13,594 nt of DNA from the NCBI GenBank assembly GCA_016839705.1, contig JAEOTR010000031.1, positions 1-13,594 of the forward strand, in the 5' to 3' direction. Origin of the DNA: Promethearchaeota archaeon (GTDB taxonomy: Archaea; Asgardarchaeota; Lokiarchaeia; Sigyniarchaeales; SOKP01). This document shows, in pieces, positions 2,220-13,594 of this stretch. Every line of letters starts with the position of its first letter. The stretch's first letter is position 1. The notes beneath the pieces are model-generated. The model made no database searches, had not been told where the DNA came from, and worked only from the letters and a program-made list of their open reading frames with translations. Both the position numbers and the translations under genes were made by a program.

Positions 2220-2810
2220 ATGAAAGAAACAGCAAAAAAATTATATACTGCATATGTTGGCGAATCACAAGCTAGAAACCGTTATAATTATTTCTCCAAA
2301 GTAGCAAAAAAGGAGGGATATGTATTAGTTTCAAAGATTTTTGACGAAACATCAGATCAAGAAAAGGAACATGGTAGTTGGTTCTATAAAATGCTCCAAC
2401 AGTTCAAGAAAGAAGAAAAGTTTGATGAAATGAAAGTGTTACCAGATGCTGATTTCCCAACAACCCTAGGAACTACAATTGAAAATTTGGAATCAGCAAT
2501 AGCCGGTGAAAATATGGAATGGCAAACCCTTTATCCTGATATTGTTAAGACCGCTGAAAAAGAAGGTTATCCTGAGATCGTTAAAAGAGTAAAGGCTATT
2601 ATAATAGCTGAAAAACATCACTCTGAGAGATATGGGAAACTTCTTAAATTAGTCGGTGATGATGCTTTCTTTAAACGAGGTAAAAAAATAGTATGGGTTT
2701 GTATGGAATGCGGGTACGAAGTAGAAATGGATGAATTACCAAAAGACTTCAAATGTCCATCTTGTGATCATCCACGGTCATACTATAGAAAGAAATGTGA
2801 AGATTTCTAA
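2220..2810 (+). CDS. rbr: Rubrerythrin (diiron four-helix bundle + C-terminal rubredoxin-like domain)
   Basis: GESQARNRY, EKEH, GENME and EKHH diiron motifs, plus C-terminal CMECG...CPSCDHP. Confidence 0.95.
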   Translation: MKETAKKLYTAYVGESQARNRYNYFSKVAKKEGYVLVSKIFDETSDQEKEHGSWFYKMLQQFKKEEKFDEMKVLPDADFPTTLGTTIENLESAIAGENMEWQTLYPDIVKTAEKEGYPEIVKRVKAIIIAEKHHSERYGKLLKLVGDDAFFKRGKKIVWVCMECGYEVEMDELPKDFKCPSCDHPRSYYRKKCEDF

Positions 2811-2822
2811 AAAAAATAAATG

Positions 2823-2857
2823 AATTTTTAATTTAAAAGCAAAATTTTTAAAAATTA
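2823..2857 (+). promoter_or_regulatory. Conserved promoter/operator element upstream of dfx copy 1 (BRE/TATA-like, palindrome AATTTTTAAAAATT at 2843-2856)
   Basis: 34/35 identical to 8528-8562 and at nearly the same distance from the dfx start, while the surrounding spacer has diverged. Confidence 0.7.
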
Positions 2858-2902
2858 GATTATCTGAATAAAATCAAAAATAGAATAGTTTTGTGAAGAA
2901 AA

Positions 2903-3289
2903 ATGGAACAGAAACAAATTTTTAGATGTTCGATATGCGGTAAAGTAATAGAAATATTAAACCCTGGTGTCCCTGAAACGATCTGTTGCGGTGAACCCAT
3001 GAAATTAATGGAGGAGCAAACTGCCGAATGGGAGAAAGAGAAGCATGTTCCAAAAATCACGGTTGATGGCAACAAGGTCACCGTTGACATTGGAATCTCA
3101 ATGCGAACTCCTCATCCGATGACTGACGAGCACTATATAATGTGGATTGAAATAATTTGTAAAGATGGCTGCTATGAAAGAAGATTCTTGAAGCCTGGTA
3201 TGGAGCCAAAAGCCATCTTCACCGTAGCTAACCCAGAGGGGCTCTGGGCGAGGGAGTACTGCAATCTCCACTTCCTCTGGCGTTCTTAA
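2903..3289 (+). CDS. dfx: Desulfoferrodoxin (2Fe superoxide reductase), copy 1
   Basis: Desulforedoxin domain CSICG...ICCG and SOR centre II motifs EKHVP, HPMTDEHYIMWIE, REYCNLH. Confidence 0.95.
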   Translation: MEQKQIFRCSICGKVIEILNPGVPETICCGEPMKLMEEQTAEWEKEKHVPKITVDGNKVTVDIGISMRTPHPMTDEHYIMWIEIICKDGCYERRFLKPGMEPKAIFTVANPEGLWAREYCNLHFLWRS

Positions 3290-5325: not shown

Positions 5326-5817
5326 TCATAAGGTTTTATATCCTTTTACTAAGCTTATTCCGAAATCTTTGCATTTTGGAGGGTCTTCATTTGCTATAGG
5401 CCCTTTCATACCATCTACTTTTATGGATAGTGGTTGACTTAATTTTGTTAAAGTCGGAATTTTTTCACTAATCTGTCTCTCAATTTTATCCAACATATTT
5501 GTATAAGAAAATATTCCCTCTTCAGCCGTTTCAGAATCACCTTCCATATAAGTATCAAATACAGCATAGGACTTTGCTTTTAATTGAGATTTTGGAAGTT
5601 TATTGATAAATTTCTTTATCGAGCCTACATGCTTTCCAAAATGAATCGGAGATCCTATTAAAAGTAAGTCATAGGAATCATCTTTTTTAAGATTTACGTC
5701 TTTTACATTATTCACTATTACTTCATTACCCTCAATAGAACTGATTCCTTCAGCAATTAAATTGGCTACTTTTTCAGTATTTCCATATTTTGTATAATAA
5801 ACTATTAAAACTTTCAC
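5326..5817 (-). CDS. Flavodoxin-family protein
   Basis: FMN-binding loop YYTKYGNTEKVA, IGSPIHFG and AVFDT. GTG start preceded by AGGGG. Ends 18 nt before the UbiA gene. Confidence 0.9.
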   Translation of the reverse strand: MKVLIVYYTKYGNTEKVANLIAEGISSIEGNEVIVNNVKDVNLKKDDSYDLLLIGSPIHFGKHVGSIKKFINKLPKSQLKAKSYAVFDTYMEGDSETAEEGIFSYTNMLDKIERQISEKIPTLTKLSQPLSIKVDGMKGPIANEDPPKCKDFGISLVKGYKTL

Positions 5818-6026: not shown

Positions 6027-6518
6027 ATGGATGAATTAGACGAACAGATACTTAGTAAATTAAAGCAAGACGCAAAATTGTCTTATAAAAAAATTGCTAA
6101 AATGCTAAAGATTCCTCCGAGTACTATTCATTTCAGGATCAAAAGGATGATAGAAGAAAAAATAATTGAAAGATTCAGCGCTATAGTAGATGTTGGAAAA
6201 TTAGGTTATGAAACAGTAGGGTGGATTGGCTTGACAATTGATCCTTTAAAGACAGATGAAATAGCAAAAAAAGTAGCTTCTTTTGAAGAAGTAAGAATGG
6301 TTTCTATTACGGGAGGTGCTCACAATCTCGTAGCTCAGATTTTAACTAAGAATGAAAAAGATCTTTGGAATTTTATTCGAGAAAATATTCAAACTATTGA
6401 TGGGGTACAAGGTCTTGATGTCAGTTCTTCCTTAAAAATTTTTAAATGGGATACCTATTATTTTTTTAATATTCCGGAAGAAAAAGACATTGTAGTGCTG
6501 GACGGCATAAAAAAGTAA
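6027..6518 (+). CDS. Lrp/AsnC family transcriptional regulator
   Basis: MDELDEQILSKLKQDAKLSYKKIAKMLKIPPSTIHFRIKRM HTH, then VDVGKLGY and a RAM domain (ITGGAHNL). Confidence 0.93.
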   Translation: MDELDEQILSKLKQDAKLSYKKIAKMLKIPPSTIHFRIKRMIEEKIIERFSAIVDVGKLGYETVGWIGLTIDPLKTDEIAKKVASFEEVRMVSITGGAHNLVAQILTKNEKDLWNFIRENIQTIDGVQGLDVSSSLKIFKWDTYYFFNIPEEKDIVVLDGIKK

Positions 6519-8269: not shown

Positions 8270-8383
8270 TCAAACTTTTAAGAAATCCAAGATGATTTTA
8301 CTTACTTCGACGGTTCTGGTCATAGGAGCAAAATGTCCTGCCTTTTCGATGACAGATAAAGTACTATTTGGTATTTGCTTTCT
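8270..8383 (-). pseudogene. 3' remnant of an alpha/beta-fold hydrolase
   Basis: Minus strand reads RKQIPNSTLSVIEKAGHFAPMTRTVEVSKIILDFLKV*, the typical IPNS-x-L-x-VIxxAGH...DFL C-terminus with the catalytic His. There is no start, and an in-frame stop lies at 8386-8384. Confidence 0.8.
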
Positions 8384-8523
8384 TCAAACGTGGAAAGAAA
8401 ATTGTATGGGTTTGTGTGGAGTGCGGTTATGAAGTTGAAATGGATGAGTTGCCTGAAGACTTTAAATGCCCATCCTGTGACCATCCTAGATCATACTATA
8501 GAAAGAAATGTGAAGAATTCTAG
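8368..8523 (+). pseudogene. rbr: 3' fragment of a second rubrerythrin (rubredoxin-like domain only); possibly expressed as a 51-aa protein from TTG at 8368
   Basis: 8377-8523 encodes AFFKRGKKIVWVCVECGYEVEMDELPEDFKCPSCDHPRSYYRKKCEEF*, 45/48 aa identical to the C-terminus of the 2220-2810 protein. The diiron domain is absent, with an in-frame TGA at 8350-8352. Confidence 0.88.
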
Positions 8524-8527
8524 ATCC

Positions 8528-8562
8528 AATTTTTAATCTAAAAGCAAAATTTTTAAAAATTA
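8528..8562 (+). promoter_or_regulatory. Conserved promoter/operator element upstream of dfx copy 2 (palindrome at 8548-8561)
   Basis: 34/35 identical to 2823-2857. Confidence 0.7.
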
Positions 8563-8605
8563 AATGATATGATTTAAAAATAAAAATCACACGCGTGAAA
8601 TATTT

Positions 8606-8998
8606 ATGAAACAAAAAGAAATATACAAATGTAGCATTTGTGGAAAAGTAATCGAAATTTTACACCCAGCTGCTCCAGAAACCATTTGTTGCGGTCAACC
8701 AATGAAGTTAATGGAGGAACAAACTACTGATTGGAAAACAGAGAAGCATGTTCCAAAAATTACGGTTGAGGGTAATAAGGTAACTGTTGATGTGGGAATC
8801 TCAATGGGAACTCCTCATCCTATGACTGATGAGCATTACATAATGTGGATTGAAATAATATGTAAAGATGGGTGCTACGAAAGAAGATTCTTAAAGCCTG
8901 GTGATGAACCAAGAGCAACTTTTACTGTTGCTAATCCAGAAGGTCTCTGGGCTCGAGAATATTGTAATCTACATTTCTTATGGGTCTCAGTAAAGTAA
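8606..8998 (+). CDS. dfx: Desulfoferrodoxin (2Fe superoxide reductase), copy 2
   Basis: Same motifs as copy 1, 109/128 aa identical by manual alignment. Confidence 0.95.
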   Translation: MKQKEIYKCSICGKVIEILHPAAPETICCGQPMKLMEEQTTDWKTEKHVPKITVEGNKVTVDVGISMGTPHPMTDEHYIMWIEIICKDGCYERRFLKPGDEPRATFTVANPEGLWAREYCNLHFLWVSVK

Positions 8999-11059: not shown

Positions 11060-11117
11060 TTCTTAACTCTTATAAAATAATCAAAAACAAAAAAATAGAG
11101 ATTTTTAATATTTGCAT

Positions 11118-12296
11118 TCAATCCCTCTTTTTACCGAGGGAAGGCATTGCATGCTCATATCTTTTCATGGCAAATCGTGAGATAACAATTCTTTGAATCT
11201 CACTCGTTCCTTCATATATTTGGTATAATTTTGCATCTCTAAATAGTTTTTCGACAGGATATGTTCTTAAATACCCATAACCTCCGAATATCTGGACTGC
11301 TTCTGTTGTTACGTTCATTGCAACATCCGAAGCGAAAGCTTTAGCTACTGATGAGCTTAAATTATTATCCATGCCTTGATCGGCTTCCCAAGCTGCTTTA
11401 TATGTTAGTAAACGTGCGGCTTCAATATCCTTATACATATTGGCAATTTTTTCCTGAATTACTTGATAGTTTCCAATTGGTCTTCCAAAAGTCTCTCTCT
11501 TTTGGGCATAATCGATAGAATATTCCATAGCAGAACGAGCACATCCAACCGCAAAGGCACCTATAGCTGGTCGAGTGTGAGCAAATGTTTGCATGGCCAA
11601 AACAAACCCTCTTCCAGGTTTAGCAAGAACATTTTCTTTAGGGATCCTTACATCTTTTAGACCAATGGATACAGTATTTGACGATCTTTGGCCTAATTTA
11701 GGAATATGTTTTCCTAACTTTACTCCTTCAGTCTGAGTATCTACAATAAAAGCAGCAATTCCCTTATGTTTTTTTTCAGGGTCAACTGTAGCAAATACCG
11801 TAATATAATCAGCATATCCTCCATTGGTGATCCAAAACTTATTTCCATTTAATATGTATTCATCTCCATCTTTATCTGCAAAACATTTCATTCCTGCGAC
11901 ATCAGAGCCCATTGTTGGTTCAGATGTAGCAAAAGCAATTAGTTTAAACTCATTGACTAATTCAGTTAAAATTCTTTGCTTCTGCTCTTCATTGCCTCCT
12001 ATAACAATTGGTTCAGCACCAAGGTTATTATCAAAGATTGAAGTTGCTATTCCAGGACATGCAGATGATATTTCCTCAACAACAATACAAGAACTTAATA
12101 AACCATATCCAGGACCTCCATATTCCGTAGGGATTCCTAAATTTAATAATCCTTCTTCCCAAGCTTTTTTAATAACTGGTAGAGGAAATTCTTCAGATTC
12201 GTCATATTTTCTTGCAACCGGTAATACTTCATTAATTGCAAACTCTCTTGCTTTATTTCTTAAAGATTTCTGGTCTTCTGAAAGTAAAAAATCCAT
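11118..12296 (-). CDS. Acyl-CoA dehydrogenase (short/medium-chain type)
   Basis: FATSEPTMGSD, LNGNKFWITNG, RETFGRPI, QIFGGYGY and catalytic IYEGTSEIQR. SD GAGG upstream. Confidence 0.95.
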   Translation of the reverse strand: MDFLLSEDQKSLRNKAREFAINEVLPVARKYDESEEFPLPVIKKAWEEGLLNLGIPTEYGGPGYGLLSSCIVVEEISSACPGIATSIFDNNLGAEPIVIGGNEEQKQRILTELVNEFKLIAFATSEPTMGSDVAGMKCFADKDGDEYILNGNKFWITNGGYADYITVFATVDPEKKHKGIAAFIVDTQTEGVKLGKHIPKLGQRSSNTVSIGLKDVRIPKENVLAKPGRGFVLAMQTFAHTRPAIGAFAVGCARSAMEYSIDYAQKRETFGRPIGNYQVIQEKIANMYKDIEAARLLTYKAAWEADQGMDNNLSSSVAKAFASDVAMNVTTEAVQIFGGYGYLRTYPVEKLFRDAKLYQIYEGTSEIQRIVISRFAMKRYEHAMPSLGKKRD

Positions 12297-12310
12297 TTTC
12301 TTAGCCTCAT

Positions 12311-13498
12311 TTAACCCATTTTCTCAATTAATTTGTCAACAATTTCCTTAAAATCTAATTCCTCTGGTTTTGGTACAAATTTAACCTTAATTAACTCATC
12401 CAAAACATCAATTTTGGTTTCTTTCATTATATTAGCAATTTCTTGCGTTGCCTGACCTGACCATCCATAAGAACCAAAAGCTAAACCGACTTTATTCATG
12501 GGTTTTAATCCTCTTTGGTATGATAAATACTCTGCTACACTTGGATACAATCCATTATTAAGAGTAGGGCTTCCCACTAATATAGCCTTTGCTTTCATAG
12601 CTTCAGTAATTACATCAGAATAGTCTGCATTAGTCAATTTAAACCTTTTTACAGGAATACCTCTATGGTTAATTTCTTTTGCTAAAGCTTTAGCAACTTT
12701 TTCTGTACTTCCCCACATAGTATCATATACTATTAGTACACTCTTCTCATCGAATTCCCCTTTACACCATTTAGTATATTTTTCTAGAATTTCTGGAATA
12801 TGACTACGCCAGCATACTCCATGAGAAGTACAGATAATTTCAATAGGCAACGTTCCTACTTTCGGTAAAGCTTTCGCAATTAAACCAGATAAGTGAAGTA
12901 AGATATTCGCATAATATTTCTCAGCTTCTTGCATTATTTCACATAAATCGTTCTCATCATCCCAGCGTTTTGTTGTGGCATAATGTTGCCCAAATGCATC
13001 ATTTGAGAACAATACATTCTTACTATTCTCGTCGGTCATAAAAGATACCATTGAATCTGGCCAATGGATCATTGGTATTGGAACAAATGTAAATTTCTTA
13101 CCATTCCCGATATCTAAAGTATCTCCCTCTTTAACTCCTCTGATTTTATTAAAAACTTCATCTCCTATCTCCTCATGGAAATGTGCTTTCAATACATCGA
13201 CACCTCTCTCGGATGCAATTAACTCAGCATTAGGAAGATATTTAAGAATTAATGGAAATGACCCAGAATGATCCATCTCTACATGATTAGTAATGAAGTA
13301 GTCAATTTCGGAAGGATCGCATACTTCCTTAATGTTATTCAAAAAATATTCAAAATAAGGTCGTTTAACTGTATCAATTAAAACTGTTTTCTCTCCTTTC
13401 ACTAGATATGCATTATAAGTACTACCTCGATGAGTGGAGTATCCGTGAAAATTTCGGACTTCAAAATCGACATAACCTATATAGTATATATCTTTCAT
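12311..13498 (-). CDS. fprA: Flavodiiron protein (FprA/ROO, class A: metallo-beta-lactamase + flavodoxin domain); true start may be ATT at 13516
   Basis: GSTYNAYL, NHVEMDHSG, HWPDSM, SNDAFGQH, SHG, YDTMWGST, GSPTLN, FGSYGWSG. Confidence 0.95.
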   Translation of the reverse strand: MKDIYYIGYVDFEVRNFHGYSTHRGSTYNAYLVKGEKTVLIDTVKRPYFEYFLNNIKEVCDPSEIDYFITNHVEMDHSGSFPLILKYLPNAELIASERGVDVLKAHFHEEIGDEVFNKIRGVKEGDTLDIGNGKKFTFVPIPMIHWPDSMVSFMTDENSKNVLFSNDAFGQHYATTKRWDDENDLCEIMQEAEKYYANILLHLSGLIAKALPKVGTLPIEIICTSHGVCWRSHIPEILEKYTKWCKGEFDEKSVLIVYDTMWGSTEKVAKALAKEINHRGIPVKRFKLTNADYSDVITEAMKAKAILVGSPTLNNGLYPSVAEYLSYQRGLKPMNKVGLAFGSYGWSGQATQEIANIMKETKIDVLDELIKVKFVPKPEELDFKEIVDKLIEKMG

Positions 13499-13594
13499 TA
13501 ACTCTAAATGAGTAATATCAGTTCACCTTCAATATTTAGGTTTTTAGTTTATTTTTTAATAGTAATATAAATCAAATTAAAAACTTATATTCTA

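Follow-up and report, generated by a model that had tools for sequence, protein, structure and literature searches.

The FDP-ACAD gene pair and its surroundings

The stretch of Lokiarchaeial DNA analysed here, 13,594 nt long and referred to throughout as the window, ends in a two-gene unit that is read from the reverse strand, inward from the contig edge. Its features, and those of the accompanying genes, are the following.

13499-13594, reverse strand: conserved region 5' of the FDP gene (alignments with relatives), promoter-proximal or leader
12311-13498, reverse strand: class-A flavodiiron protein (FDP) of 395 aa, by family an FprA-type O2/NO reductase; the gene that opens the bicistron
12297-12310, reverse strand: intergenic spacer of 14 nt, ATGAGGCTAAGAAA, with a ribosome-binding-like GAGG
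11118-12296, reverse strand: acyl-CoA dehydrogenase (ACAD), MCAD-like, untailed, complete, 392 aa; member of a rubredoxin-linked Lokiarchaeial ACAD clade
11121-11156, reverse strand: 12-residue C-terminal stub of the ACAD, EHAMPSLGKKRD, homologous in alignments to the start of a rubredoxin-tail linker
11082-11100, reverse strand: oligo-T tract 3' of the ACAD stop, read from the sequence; likely an archaeal transcription stop
8606-8998, forward strand: superoxide reductase, 2Fe (desulfoferrodoxin type; Pfam), a possible further rubredoxin-dependent sink
8368-8523, forward strand: rubrerythrin-type rubredoxin-like ORF, 51 aa (Pfam RUBY_RBDX)
5326-5817: flavodoxin
2903-3289, forward strand: superoxide reductase, 2Fe type (Pfam), in the same island as the rubrerythrin
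2220-2810, forward strand: rubrerythrin (Pfam), a context gene of the oxidative-stress island

The initial annotation had placed an FDP and an ACAD gene in the same orientation, 14 nt apart, with a Shine-Dalgarno-like GAGG in the gap, and both ORFs are confirmed by sequence and Pfam. The rubrerythrin, the two superoxide reductases and the flavodoxin that it put in the same region were all found, and the absence of ETF genes that it reported also holds: no match was seen when all of the window's ORFs of at least 50 aa were checked. The contig edge lies 96 nt upstream of the FDP gene, just inside a TATA-like box. An imperfect palindrome, TAGAATATAA-N14-TTATATTACTA, occupies positions 13560-13594, with a second copy at 6230-6264 of another contig of the same assembly (C87, see below). 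It was considered as a regulon motif and set aside: its other matches in the genome carry one mismatch and adjoin genes for RNase HII and a Ras-like GTPase, and they are probably due to chance.

Pfam resolves the 395 residues of the FDP into an ODP/Lactamase_B domain (residues 28-227) and Flavodoxin_1 (256-381), with no further domain, which is the class-A architecture. Among solved structures, Moorella thermoacetica FprA comes closest (1YCF; E 3e-102). In alignment to it, NHVEMDH (HxExDH), HWPD, NDAFGQH and SHG are all matched; we take the positions of these motifs in 1YCF to be those of the diiron ligands, which besides HxExDH comprise another His, a bridging Asp and a C-terminal His. The ACAD has the three domains of its family, Acyl-CoA_dh_N (PF02771), Acyl-CoA_dh_M (PF02770) and Acyl-CoA_dh_1 (PF00441), and, in its YEGT loop, the catalytic Glu expected of a member: the catalytic-base motif YEGTSE is intact, and Y361-E362-G363-T364 does not vary among 25 orthologues. 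The KxWITN motif likewise keeps its Trp. The solved structures nearest to it are those of Thermus thermophilus and mammalian MCAD (E 1e-110 to 1e-118), a similarity that suggests a medium-chain-like substrate. With dN/dS values against orthologues of 0.04-0.08 for the FDP and 0.04-0.09 for the ACAD, both genes are under strong purifying selection.

Pfam and alignment find no rubredoxin domain on the window's ACAD, which ends 12 residues past the ACAD core. Those 12 residues are conserved and hold no metal site; relatives of the protein that do carry a rubredoxin-type tail, of either of the two types described below, begin that tail with the same sequence, and outgroup ACADs stop before it.

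Conservation of the pair

The pair was followed through 80 species-level loci of Promethearchaeota, 77 of them assessable for the gap between the two genes; in 63 of the 77 the ACAD is preceded, at a distance of 4-33 nt, by an FDP of the same type as the window's. In dozens of related species the counterpart of the window's 14-nt spacer is 4-18 nt long. Because so short a gap recurs so often, the adjacency is far beyond chance. The survey of this adjacency for which the initial annotation had called, made here in the Promethearchaeota, finds it conserved across genus and order; the operon is widespread, most genomes of the genus and several of the order's families having it.

Within a sample of the genus, the ACAD is present in 16/16 loci that have the orthologous FDP. 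A search of 25 genus genomes with both queries found both genes in 18 and neither in 6; the remaining 2 (G020 and G018) have the ACAD only, and in G020 the contig stops at the expected FDP site. The pair is there or missing as a unit. The FDP gene is lost in 7 loci, and there the rubredoxin gene lies directly before the ACAD, which makes rubredoxin the constant partner. The wider gene order in relatives is RBR-SOR-CitMHS-HAD-(orf164)-ACAD-FDP, and in these genomes the superoxide reductase gene (8606-8998 in the window) is found in synteny with the pair.

A probable rubredoxin carrier and its fusions

Relatives of the window show the order NROR-rubredoxin, free 45-aa rubredoxin, FDP, ACAD, with the free rubredoxin gene ~170 nt upstream of the FDP gene in most loci and the NROR-rubredoxin gene further upstream (as it also is on C87). 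The window's terminal 96 nt align with the spacer between rubredoxin and FDP in these relatives, so that the rubredoxin gene would fall just off the contig, ~72 nt past its edge. The missing electron carrier is almost certainly a 45-aa rubredoxin encoded beyond the window. Just such a rubredoxin is encoded in the same assembly at C87:6323-6457; a contig abutting the window and bearing rubredoxin or NROR was sought in the assembly and none was found, both genes being on C87 only.

The initial annotation had listed, among possible carriers, a gene outside the window and the free rubredoxin-like ORF at 8368-8523. The first fits best with the gene order of relatives; the second is a weak candidate, being probably what is left, at the C-terminal end, of a rubrerythrin that was truncated. 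Its identity to residues 149-196 of the rubrerythrin in the window is 94%, and it is the only short frame of its kind among 54 genus genomes. Comparison with the window's own rubrerythrin gives pN much below pS, a contrast that reflects old paralogue divergence, and with the frame unique to this contig the notion of a functional minigene was dropped.

C87 carries a second copy of the locus, in which the ACAD has a C-terminal rubredoxin. This fusion to a canonical rubredoxin (PF00301, 83 bits) recurs in 3 further genomes of the genus. Elsewhere in the order, in other genera and families, the ACAD instead carries a rubrerythrin-type rubredoxin-like domain (PF21349), mostly adjoining an FDP gene. 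By their alignments, these two rubredoxin-type domains at one C-terminal position of the ACAD are Rosetta-stone fusions of two kinds. Searching with the rubredoxin tail alone retrieved only Asgard ACAD-rubredoxin proteins and unrelated rubredoxin fusions, and no protein of the BOOR type (see below), a representative of which came from an exhaustive search. A simple alternation of free and fused rubredoxin between loci was considered and rejected, tailed loci having a free rubredoxin gene too.

The presence of two copies in one assembly raises the question of their provenance. The window may be a duplicate, brought in when contigs of a second species of the genus were binned together with those of this one: its flanks are 73-79% identical to contigs C83 and C87, and among 54 genomes two ACAD copies occur only in G000 and G067. 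Against this, the genes in the middle of the window (APH-like kinase, UbiA, flavodoxin, Lrp and GGR) have no close second copy.

Ancestry of the ACAD

The bacterial system with which this ACAD was compared is the butyryl-CoA:oxygen oxidoreductase (BOOR) of Fusobacterium nucleatum, which consists of BCR (FN1424) and an FDP (FN1423) (Bystrom & Wolthers 2024, via PMC12288474 and PMC12630350). The two form a stable alpha4beta4 complex (PMC12288474), and BCR has an EtfA FAD domain between its ACAD and rubredoxin domains (PMC12288474, PMC12630350). For comparison, a Bacillota protein of identical architecture (P0272, with its FDP operon) was used in place of the F. nucleatum proteins.

The rubredoxin-linked ACADs, the window's included, form one clade (SH-aLRT 99), marked across three families by linkage to rubredoxin or FDP; the two ACADs that adjoin ETF genes in the genome fall outside it. 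BOOR-type ACADs fall in a separate clade (supports 99 and 95), and an AU test rejects joining the two (delta lnL 134.9, p = 2.9e-7). The ACAD does not group with the ETF-linked enzymes, an outcome that the initial annotation had said would count against its idea, nor does it join those of BOOR. Pfam finds the EtfA domain, PF00766, in the BOOR-type proteins P0151, P0250 and P0259 and in none of the window's ACAD, the ACAD-rubredoxin protein of C87 and the RBDX-tailed forms, P0121 among them.

Where the electrons may come from

With the pair conserved, the fusions of two kinds and the clade a separate one, the functional link of ACAD, rubredoxin and FDP that the initial annotation proposed gains strong comparative support; kinship with BOOR is not supported. 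The reading that we prefer, with a probability of roughly 0.55, makes the ACAD an acyl-CoA:rubredoxin oxidoreductase that works without ETF and supplies electrons to the FDP, and perhaps to superoxide reductase and rubrerythrin as well. Acyl-CoA would reduce the ACAD's FAD, which would pass single electrons directly to rubredoxin (a free protein in the window's lineage, a C-terminal domain of the ACAD itself in sister lineages) with no ETF between. From rubredoxin the electrons would pass to the FMN and the diiron site in the FDP, where O2 would be reduced to water. Superoxide reductase and rubrerythrin, encoded nearby, could probably draw on the same rubredoxin pool, for which NAD(P)H, by way of NROR, would be an alternative source of electrons. 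Since the kin of this ACAD carry a built-in rubredoxin and an FDP gene stands 14 bases before it, acyl-CoA electrons are probably spent on O2, much as in BOOR but with independently recruited parts.

Several findings count against this reading. The window's ACAD has no rubredoxin tail, and free rubredoxin genes are found in tailed loci as well. The EtfA step that BOOR-type proteins interpose between ACAD and rubredoxin has no equivalent here, and the two EtfAB pairs of the genome could in principle serve the window's ACAD. The cluster also holds a complete chain from NAD(P)H through NROR and rubredoxin to FDP, so that the ACAD is not needed for FDP function. The potentials of acyl-CoA/enoyl-CoA and of rubredoxin are close, and thermodynamics consequently does not set the direction of flow between them.

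Electrons might run the other way, the ACAD being a non-bifurcating, rubredoxin-dependent crotonyl/enoyl-CoA reductase that is fed by NAD(P)H through NROR and rubredoxin, with the FDP as one of several outlets. In most loci the genes for NROR-rubredoxin and free rubredoxin lie upstream in the same orientation; where the FDP is absent, NROR, rubredoxin and ACAD (or ACAD-rubredoxin) are retained; electron transfer from NAD(P)H to enoyl-CoA runs strongly downhill; and ACADs can work in both directions (compare Bcd-ETF; PMC12288474). Yet all other conserved neighbours are genes of oxygen and ROS defence (rubrerythrin, superoxide reductase, FDP), Bcd-like ACADs with EtfAB are already present in the genome for enoyl-CoA reduction, and the closest gene coupling of the ACAD, at 4-18 nt, is with FDP rather than NROR. 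On balance we regard reverse flow as unlikely.

It is less likely still that this is an ordinary ETF-dependent ACAD of beta-oxidation, sharing a neighbourhood or regulator with oxidative-stress genes and passing no electrons to rubredoxin or FDP. Its sequence is typically MCAD-like, with the catalytic Glu and the KxWITN Trp in place, it has no rubredoxin domain of its own, and ETF is available in the genome; but each of the two EtfAB pairs adjoins an ACAD of its own elsewhere, the clade is marked by its rubredoxin and FDP linkage in three families, the untailed form keeps the linker stub of relatives bearing two kinds of tail at that one position, and the FDP-ACAD pair is there or missing as a unit in the genus. 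Just as improbable is a direct complex, in which the untailed ACAD would dock on the FDP by way of its stub and reduce the FMN with no help from rubredoxin: the 14-nt gap suggests translational coupling, the stub is conserved and metal-free, and BCR and FDP do form a stable complex in BOOR (PMC12288474), but sister ACADs are rubredoxin-tailed, FDP-less loci retain rubredoxin directly before the ACAD, and untailed loci conserve a free rubredoxin gene upstream of the FDP. (A prediction of the FDP-ACAD complex from paired 25-row alignments, run without controls, scored 0.00, a value with no bearing on binding.)

A more ambitious form of the preferred reading, to which we give somewhat less than even odds, is that an acyl-CoA:rubredoxin oxidoreductase without need of ETF arose independently in Lokiarchaeial Asgards and powers all of their rubredoxin-dependent defence against O2 and ROS, by way of FDP, superoxide reductase and rubrerythrin alike. 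Acyl-CoA derived from fatty or amino acids would then be a direct reductant for that defence, without pyridine nucleotides, and the route would in effect be a soluble, water-forming 'acyl-CoA oxidase', by which strict anaerobes could remove O2 while beta-oxidation takes its first step, with no respiratory chain involved. The BOOR principle, known from bacteria since 2024, would then have been invented a second time by convergence, and transfer from ACAD to rubredoxin would prove possible without BOOR's ETF-type FAD domain. How the anaerobic Asgard lineage ancestral to eukaryotes handled oxygen is an open question in models of eukaryogenesis, and a conserved operon in which O2 is the outlet for electrons from acyl-CoA would supply a concrete mechanism, clonable and testable. 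Among the literature searchable here, no paper linking Asgard archaea to a flavodiiron/ACAD system was found.

Comparison with known systems

Classical NROR-rubredoxin-FDP chains (Desulfovibrio gigas ROO, 1E5D; Moorella FprA/Hrb, 1YCF; clostridial NROR-Rd-FprA) have a similar FDP, and NROR-rubredoxin and a free rubredoxin are likewise encoded upstream in relatives of the window and on C87. Unlike these chains, the Lokiarchaeial operon has an ACAD that is probably translationally coupled to the FDP and, in sister lineages, fused to rubredoxin, which points to a second reductant input that is not pyridine nucleotide. With the ETF-dependent MCADs (T. thermophilus, 1UKW; pig and human, 3MDD and 1EGE; the MCAD:ETF complexes 1T9G/2A1T) the ACAD shares its three-domain fold and catalytic Glu; it differs in not lying beside etfAB, in its conserved C-terminal stub and in having rubredoxin-tailed members in its clade. 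As for the clostridial Bcd2/rubredoxin oxidase that was earlier invoked as a precedent, our literature search found no paper on Bcd2 with rubredoxin.

The closest parallel is BOOR. Both systems combine an ACAD-family enzyme with a class-A FDP in a two-gene unit, the 14-nt gap giving the Lokiarchaeial pair the bicistronic form of the BOOR type, and both tie a rubredoxin module to the ACAD; their common logic, predicted in the present case, is acyl-CoA to rubredoxin to FMN/diiron to O2, without pyridine nucleotides. The idea that the operon is a 'split' BOOR finds no support, BOOR being already two polypeptides (BCR and FDP) with an EtfA FAD domain that is missing here; nor does that of a common origin, the AU test rejecting a joint clade of the ACADs. 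The parts are not orthologous: against the Bacillota stand-in, the MCAD-like ACAD is 42% identical to the ACAD domain of BCR, from which it is separated by clade, and the FDP only 30% identical. The order is FDP-ACAD here, as opposed to BCR-FDP in the Bacillota operon, and rubredoxin is a separate gene that is fused to the ACAD only in sister lineages, by way of two domain types. Finally, the host is an archaeon, whose cluster also includes an NROR-rubredoxin gene.

The flavodiiron protein and acyl-CoA dehydrogenase genes

A class-A flavodiiron protein (FDP) and an acyl-CoA dehydrogenase (ACAD) are encoded by neighboring genes:

12311-13498, minus strand: FDP, 395 aa, with ODP/metallo-beta-lactamase and flavodoxin family matches
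11118-12296, minus strand: ACAD, 392 aa, with all three acyl-CoA dehydrogenase domains matched

The 14-nt spacer between them, ATGAGGCTAAGAAA, has GAGG inside it, and an oligo-T tract lies 3' of the ACAD gene. The window also encodes rubrerythrin, two 2Fe superoxide reductases (SORs), a flavodoxin, a 51-aa rubrerythrin-type rubredoxin-like ORF, a CitMHS transporter, a HAD hydrolase, an Lrp regulator, a GGR-like reductase, a UbiA prenyltransferase, an APH-like kinase and a rhodanese/TusA protein; no ETF genes were found within its 13,594 bp. Since both ORFs, their family matches, the GAGG-containing spacer and this gene content were all found, the initial annotation's description of co-oriented fprA and ACAD genes, 14 nt apart and without ETF, is correct.

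The nearest match of the FDP is the rubredoxin-dependent FprA of Moorella thermoacetica (1YCF, E 3e-102), with which its diiron-ligand motifs line up. The ACAD is closest to the medium-chain ACADs of T. thermophilus and mammals (E 1e-110 to 1e-118), the clostridial butyryl-CoA dehydrogenases being more distant (5OL2, 1e-91; 1BUC, 2e-79). Its YEGT catalytic-base motif is invariant across orthologues, and dN/dS values of 0.04-0.09 signify strong purifying selection on both proteins.

Distribution of the gene pair

The adjacency of fprA and the ACAD gene is conserved, with the proviso that the genomes counted are related, so that all counts are of non-independent samples. Orthologues of the FDP (81-91% identical) are present in 17 of 24 sampled genomes of the genus, and a 392-aa ACAD follows within ~17 nt at every one of the 16 loci examined in those genomes. 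Both searches covered 25 genus genomes, of which 18 contain the two genes and six lack them. In two only the ACAD was found: G020, where the contig stops at the expected FDP site, and G018, so classified from the search result. ACADs of the window type occur in 45 of 54 genus genomes, the majority (~41) in the untailed form and four with a C-terminal canonical rubredoxin domain (one on contig C87 of the present genome, the others in G069, G052 and G062).

A set of 80 Promethearchaeota loci, each representing a species, covered ACADs 75-95% identical to that of the window: 63 loci have a window-type FDP 4-33 nt 5' of the ACAD, and in four (L144, L148-L150) the FDP, 94-193 nt upstream, is divergent or partial; contig ends cut three loci. 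The FDP is absent from the remaining 10, and in seven of these (L106, L112, L139, L161, L163, L164, L166) a free rubredoxin gene directly precedes the ACAD, tailed or untailed, with an NAD(P)H:rubredoxin oxidoreductase (NROR) upstream. A wider survey of the order (154 genomes, 24 genera) found ACADs with a rubrerythrin-type rubredoxin-like (RBDX) tail in two families (f2, f4) and in two genera of family f1 (g13, g15), directly 3' of an FDP at most of their loci, and rubredoxin-tailed ACADs in genus g12.

A second copy in the assembly

The assembly, a MAG, comprises 3.36 Mb in 97 contigs, with estimated completeness of 93% and contamination of 6.8%; the window is the full length of its contig C11. 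One of its contigs, C87, carries a colinear second copy of the window's right half at 73-77% nucleotide identity: SOR, CitMHS, HAD, a 164-aa ORF, then, convergent to these, the ACAD and FDP genes. The C87 ACAD (469 aa) has a canonical rubredoxin domain at its C-terminal end (PF00301, 83 bits), so that untailed and rubredoxin-tailed forms lie within one assembly; 5' of the C87 FDP are genes for a free rubredoxin of 45 aa, for an MFS transporter and for an NROR that itself ends in a rubredoxin. The 164-aa ORF, which is conserved and has no Pfam match, stands between HAD hydrolase and ACAD on C87 (3058-3552) and at loci L082, L083 and L085-L087; it is absent from the window, where HAD and ACAD are only 58 nt apart.

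The window is either a contig of a co-binned congener or a paralogous oxidative-stress island of the genome that also contains C87. Its duplicated flanks favor co-binning: the window's ends are 73-79% identical, in the same gene order, to C83 (13637-15445), C12 and C87 (370-6264), and two ACAD copies occur in just two of the 54 genus genomes (this one and G067). Against co-binning stand the genes of the middle (APH-like kinase, orf81, orf100, UbiA, flavodoxin, Lrp and GGR), which have no close second copy in the assembly.

Phylogeny of the ACAD

The ACAD-domain tree comprised the window and C87 proteins, those of 25 related loci, seven other ACADs of the genome (four more were omitted because the match was too short) and 145 of the 150 best-ranked representatives found by searching 1.84 billion proteins exhaustively; a 65-row subset was analyzed with IQ-TREE. 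One clade holds all rubredoxin- or FDP-linked Lokiarchaeial ACADs (SH-aLRT 99 in the subset) and is divided into three subclades, one untailed, with the window's ACAD (91), one rubredoxin-tailed (92) and one RBDX-tailed (94); closest outside the clade is an untailed ACAD from Helarchaeota. Proteins of the type of bacterial butyryl-CoA:oxygen oxidoreductase (BOOR) fall in another clade (95), along with the genome's ETF-adjacent Bcd-like ACADs. Joining the Lokiarchaeial clade with the BOOR-type proteins is rejected by the AU test (delta lnL 134.9, p = 2.9e-7); the groups compared were defined by architecture, but their naming came after inspection of the first tree.

That the window's protein might be an ordinary ETF-dependent ACAD is an unlikely alternative: the two EtfAB pairs of the genome, which has 14 ACAD-family matches, each adjoin another ACAD (on C46 and C30), and the ACAD of the window does not group with such enzymes.

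The window ACAD terminates in a 12-residue stub, EHAMPSLGKKRD, that lines up with the first linker residues of both tail types and is kept throughout the untailed clade; outgroup ACADs end before it. The simplest reading of these alignments is an ancestor of the clade already extended at its C-terminus, with loss of the metal domain in the lineage of the window, which would rely on free rubredoxin.

Among the best matches to the Lokiarchaeial ACAD in the exhaustive search are also tandem double-ACAD fusions of ~770 aa (P0122, P0123, P0125, P0127). Two other representatives are a PilZ-ACAD fusion (P0138) and an ACAD-glyoxalase fusion (P0218).

Candidate electron carriers

As the missing carrier, the initial annotation had offered the flavodoxin, a gene outside the window, or the following ORF:

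8368-8523, plus strand: 51-aa rubrerythrin-type rubredoxin-like ORF, the C-terminal 48 residues of a rubrerythrin

This last candidate has lost ground. It lies at a 618-bp duplication of a rubrerythrin end and SOR (2663-3280 and 8376-8983, 79% nucleotide identity), and in all 53 other genus genomes the homologous sequence is inside a full-length rubrerythrin frame, the window's copy being the sole exception among 54. We read the ORF as a probable remnant left by the duplication; the alternative is a very young minigene. (Genus genomes also have open frames of ~290-366 aa with two or three tandem rubrerythrin-type rubredoxin-like repeats, for example G017:C66:12528-12962 and G067:C104:8519-8953.)

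The gene outside the window is the best supported option, because the contig ends short of the place where relatives have their rubredoxin. At most loci the gene of a canonical rubredoxin of 45 aa ends ~170 nt 5' of the FDP, with an NROR-rubredoxin gene farther upstream. The last 96 nt of the window match the FDP-proximal part of that spacer almost base for base; the contig therefore stops just inside a TATA-like box, ~72 nt before the rubredoxin stop codon. No other contig of the assembly was found that could supply this neighbor; the genome does encode rubredoxin, on C87.

The rubredoxin-FDP spacer (window 13499-13594; C87 6179-6330; loci L088-L167) is far better conserved than the synonymous sites of its flanking genes. 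Its elements are the TATA-like TTTTATAAT, a ATAGAATATAAGTTTTTAA core whose imperfect palindrome reads TAGAATATAA-N14-TTATATTACTA, and, at the start codon, CATTTAGARTTAATG. The spacer is a candidate for the operator or leader of an operon of oxygen stress; two other genomic matches to the palindrome look like chance.

Proposed electron flow

By analogy, acyl-CoA would reduce the FAD of the ACAD, which would pass electrons one at a time to rubredoxin and thence to the FMN and diiron site of the FDP, where O2 would be reduced to water. We consider this the best reading, at a probability of roughly 0.55. NROR would provide a parallel input from NAD(P)H. Its presence at these loci also suits a less likely rival, the reverse flow, an NAD(P)H-driven reduction of enoyl-CoA. 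Direct docking of the ACAD on the FDP, another less likely rival, would dispense with rubredoxin; the two genes are closely spaced, and rubredoxin recurs at these loci, free or fused. Returning to flow from acyl-CoA, the ACAD is better described as a putative acyl-CoA:rubredoxin oxidoreductase, given the rubredoxin kept beside it at loci that lack the FDP and the synteny of SOR and rubrerythrin; it would then serve the whole rubredoxin-dependent defense.

Comparison with BOOR

A literature search found no paper linking Asgard archaea with flavodiiron proteins in such a system. The principle of passing electrons from acyl-CoA to O2 is already known from BOOR (2024); the proposed archaeal, EtfA-free version would be new. 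In two reports (PMC12288474, PMC12630350), the F. nucleatum enzyme (FN1423-FN1424) is described as an alpha4beta4 complex of FDP and BCR, the latter made up of Bcd, the EtfA C-terminal domain and rubredoxin; with O2 as acceptor the complex oxidizes butyryl-CoA, and it does not reduce NO. Its stand-in for our comparisons was a protein from Bacillota with the same architecture and gene neighborhood (ACAD, ETF_alpha and rubredoxin in 638 aa, with the FDP gene 4 nt downstream); the window's ACAD and FDP are 42% and 30% identical, respectively, to their counterparts in this BOOR-type pair. With these identities, and with the separate clades and the AU result, the earlier notion of a split BOOR gives way: the Lokiarchaeial system is, on present sequence comparisons, a convergent analogue. 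The EtfA FAD domain, which it lacks, is the main gap in the analogy; it further differs from BOOR in being archaeal and independently recruited, in having its rubredoxin modules free or alternatively fused, and in its embedded NROR.
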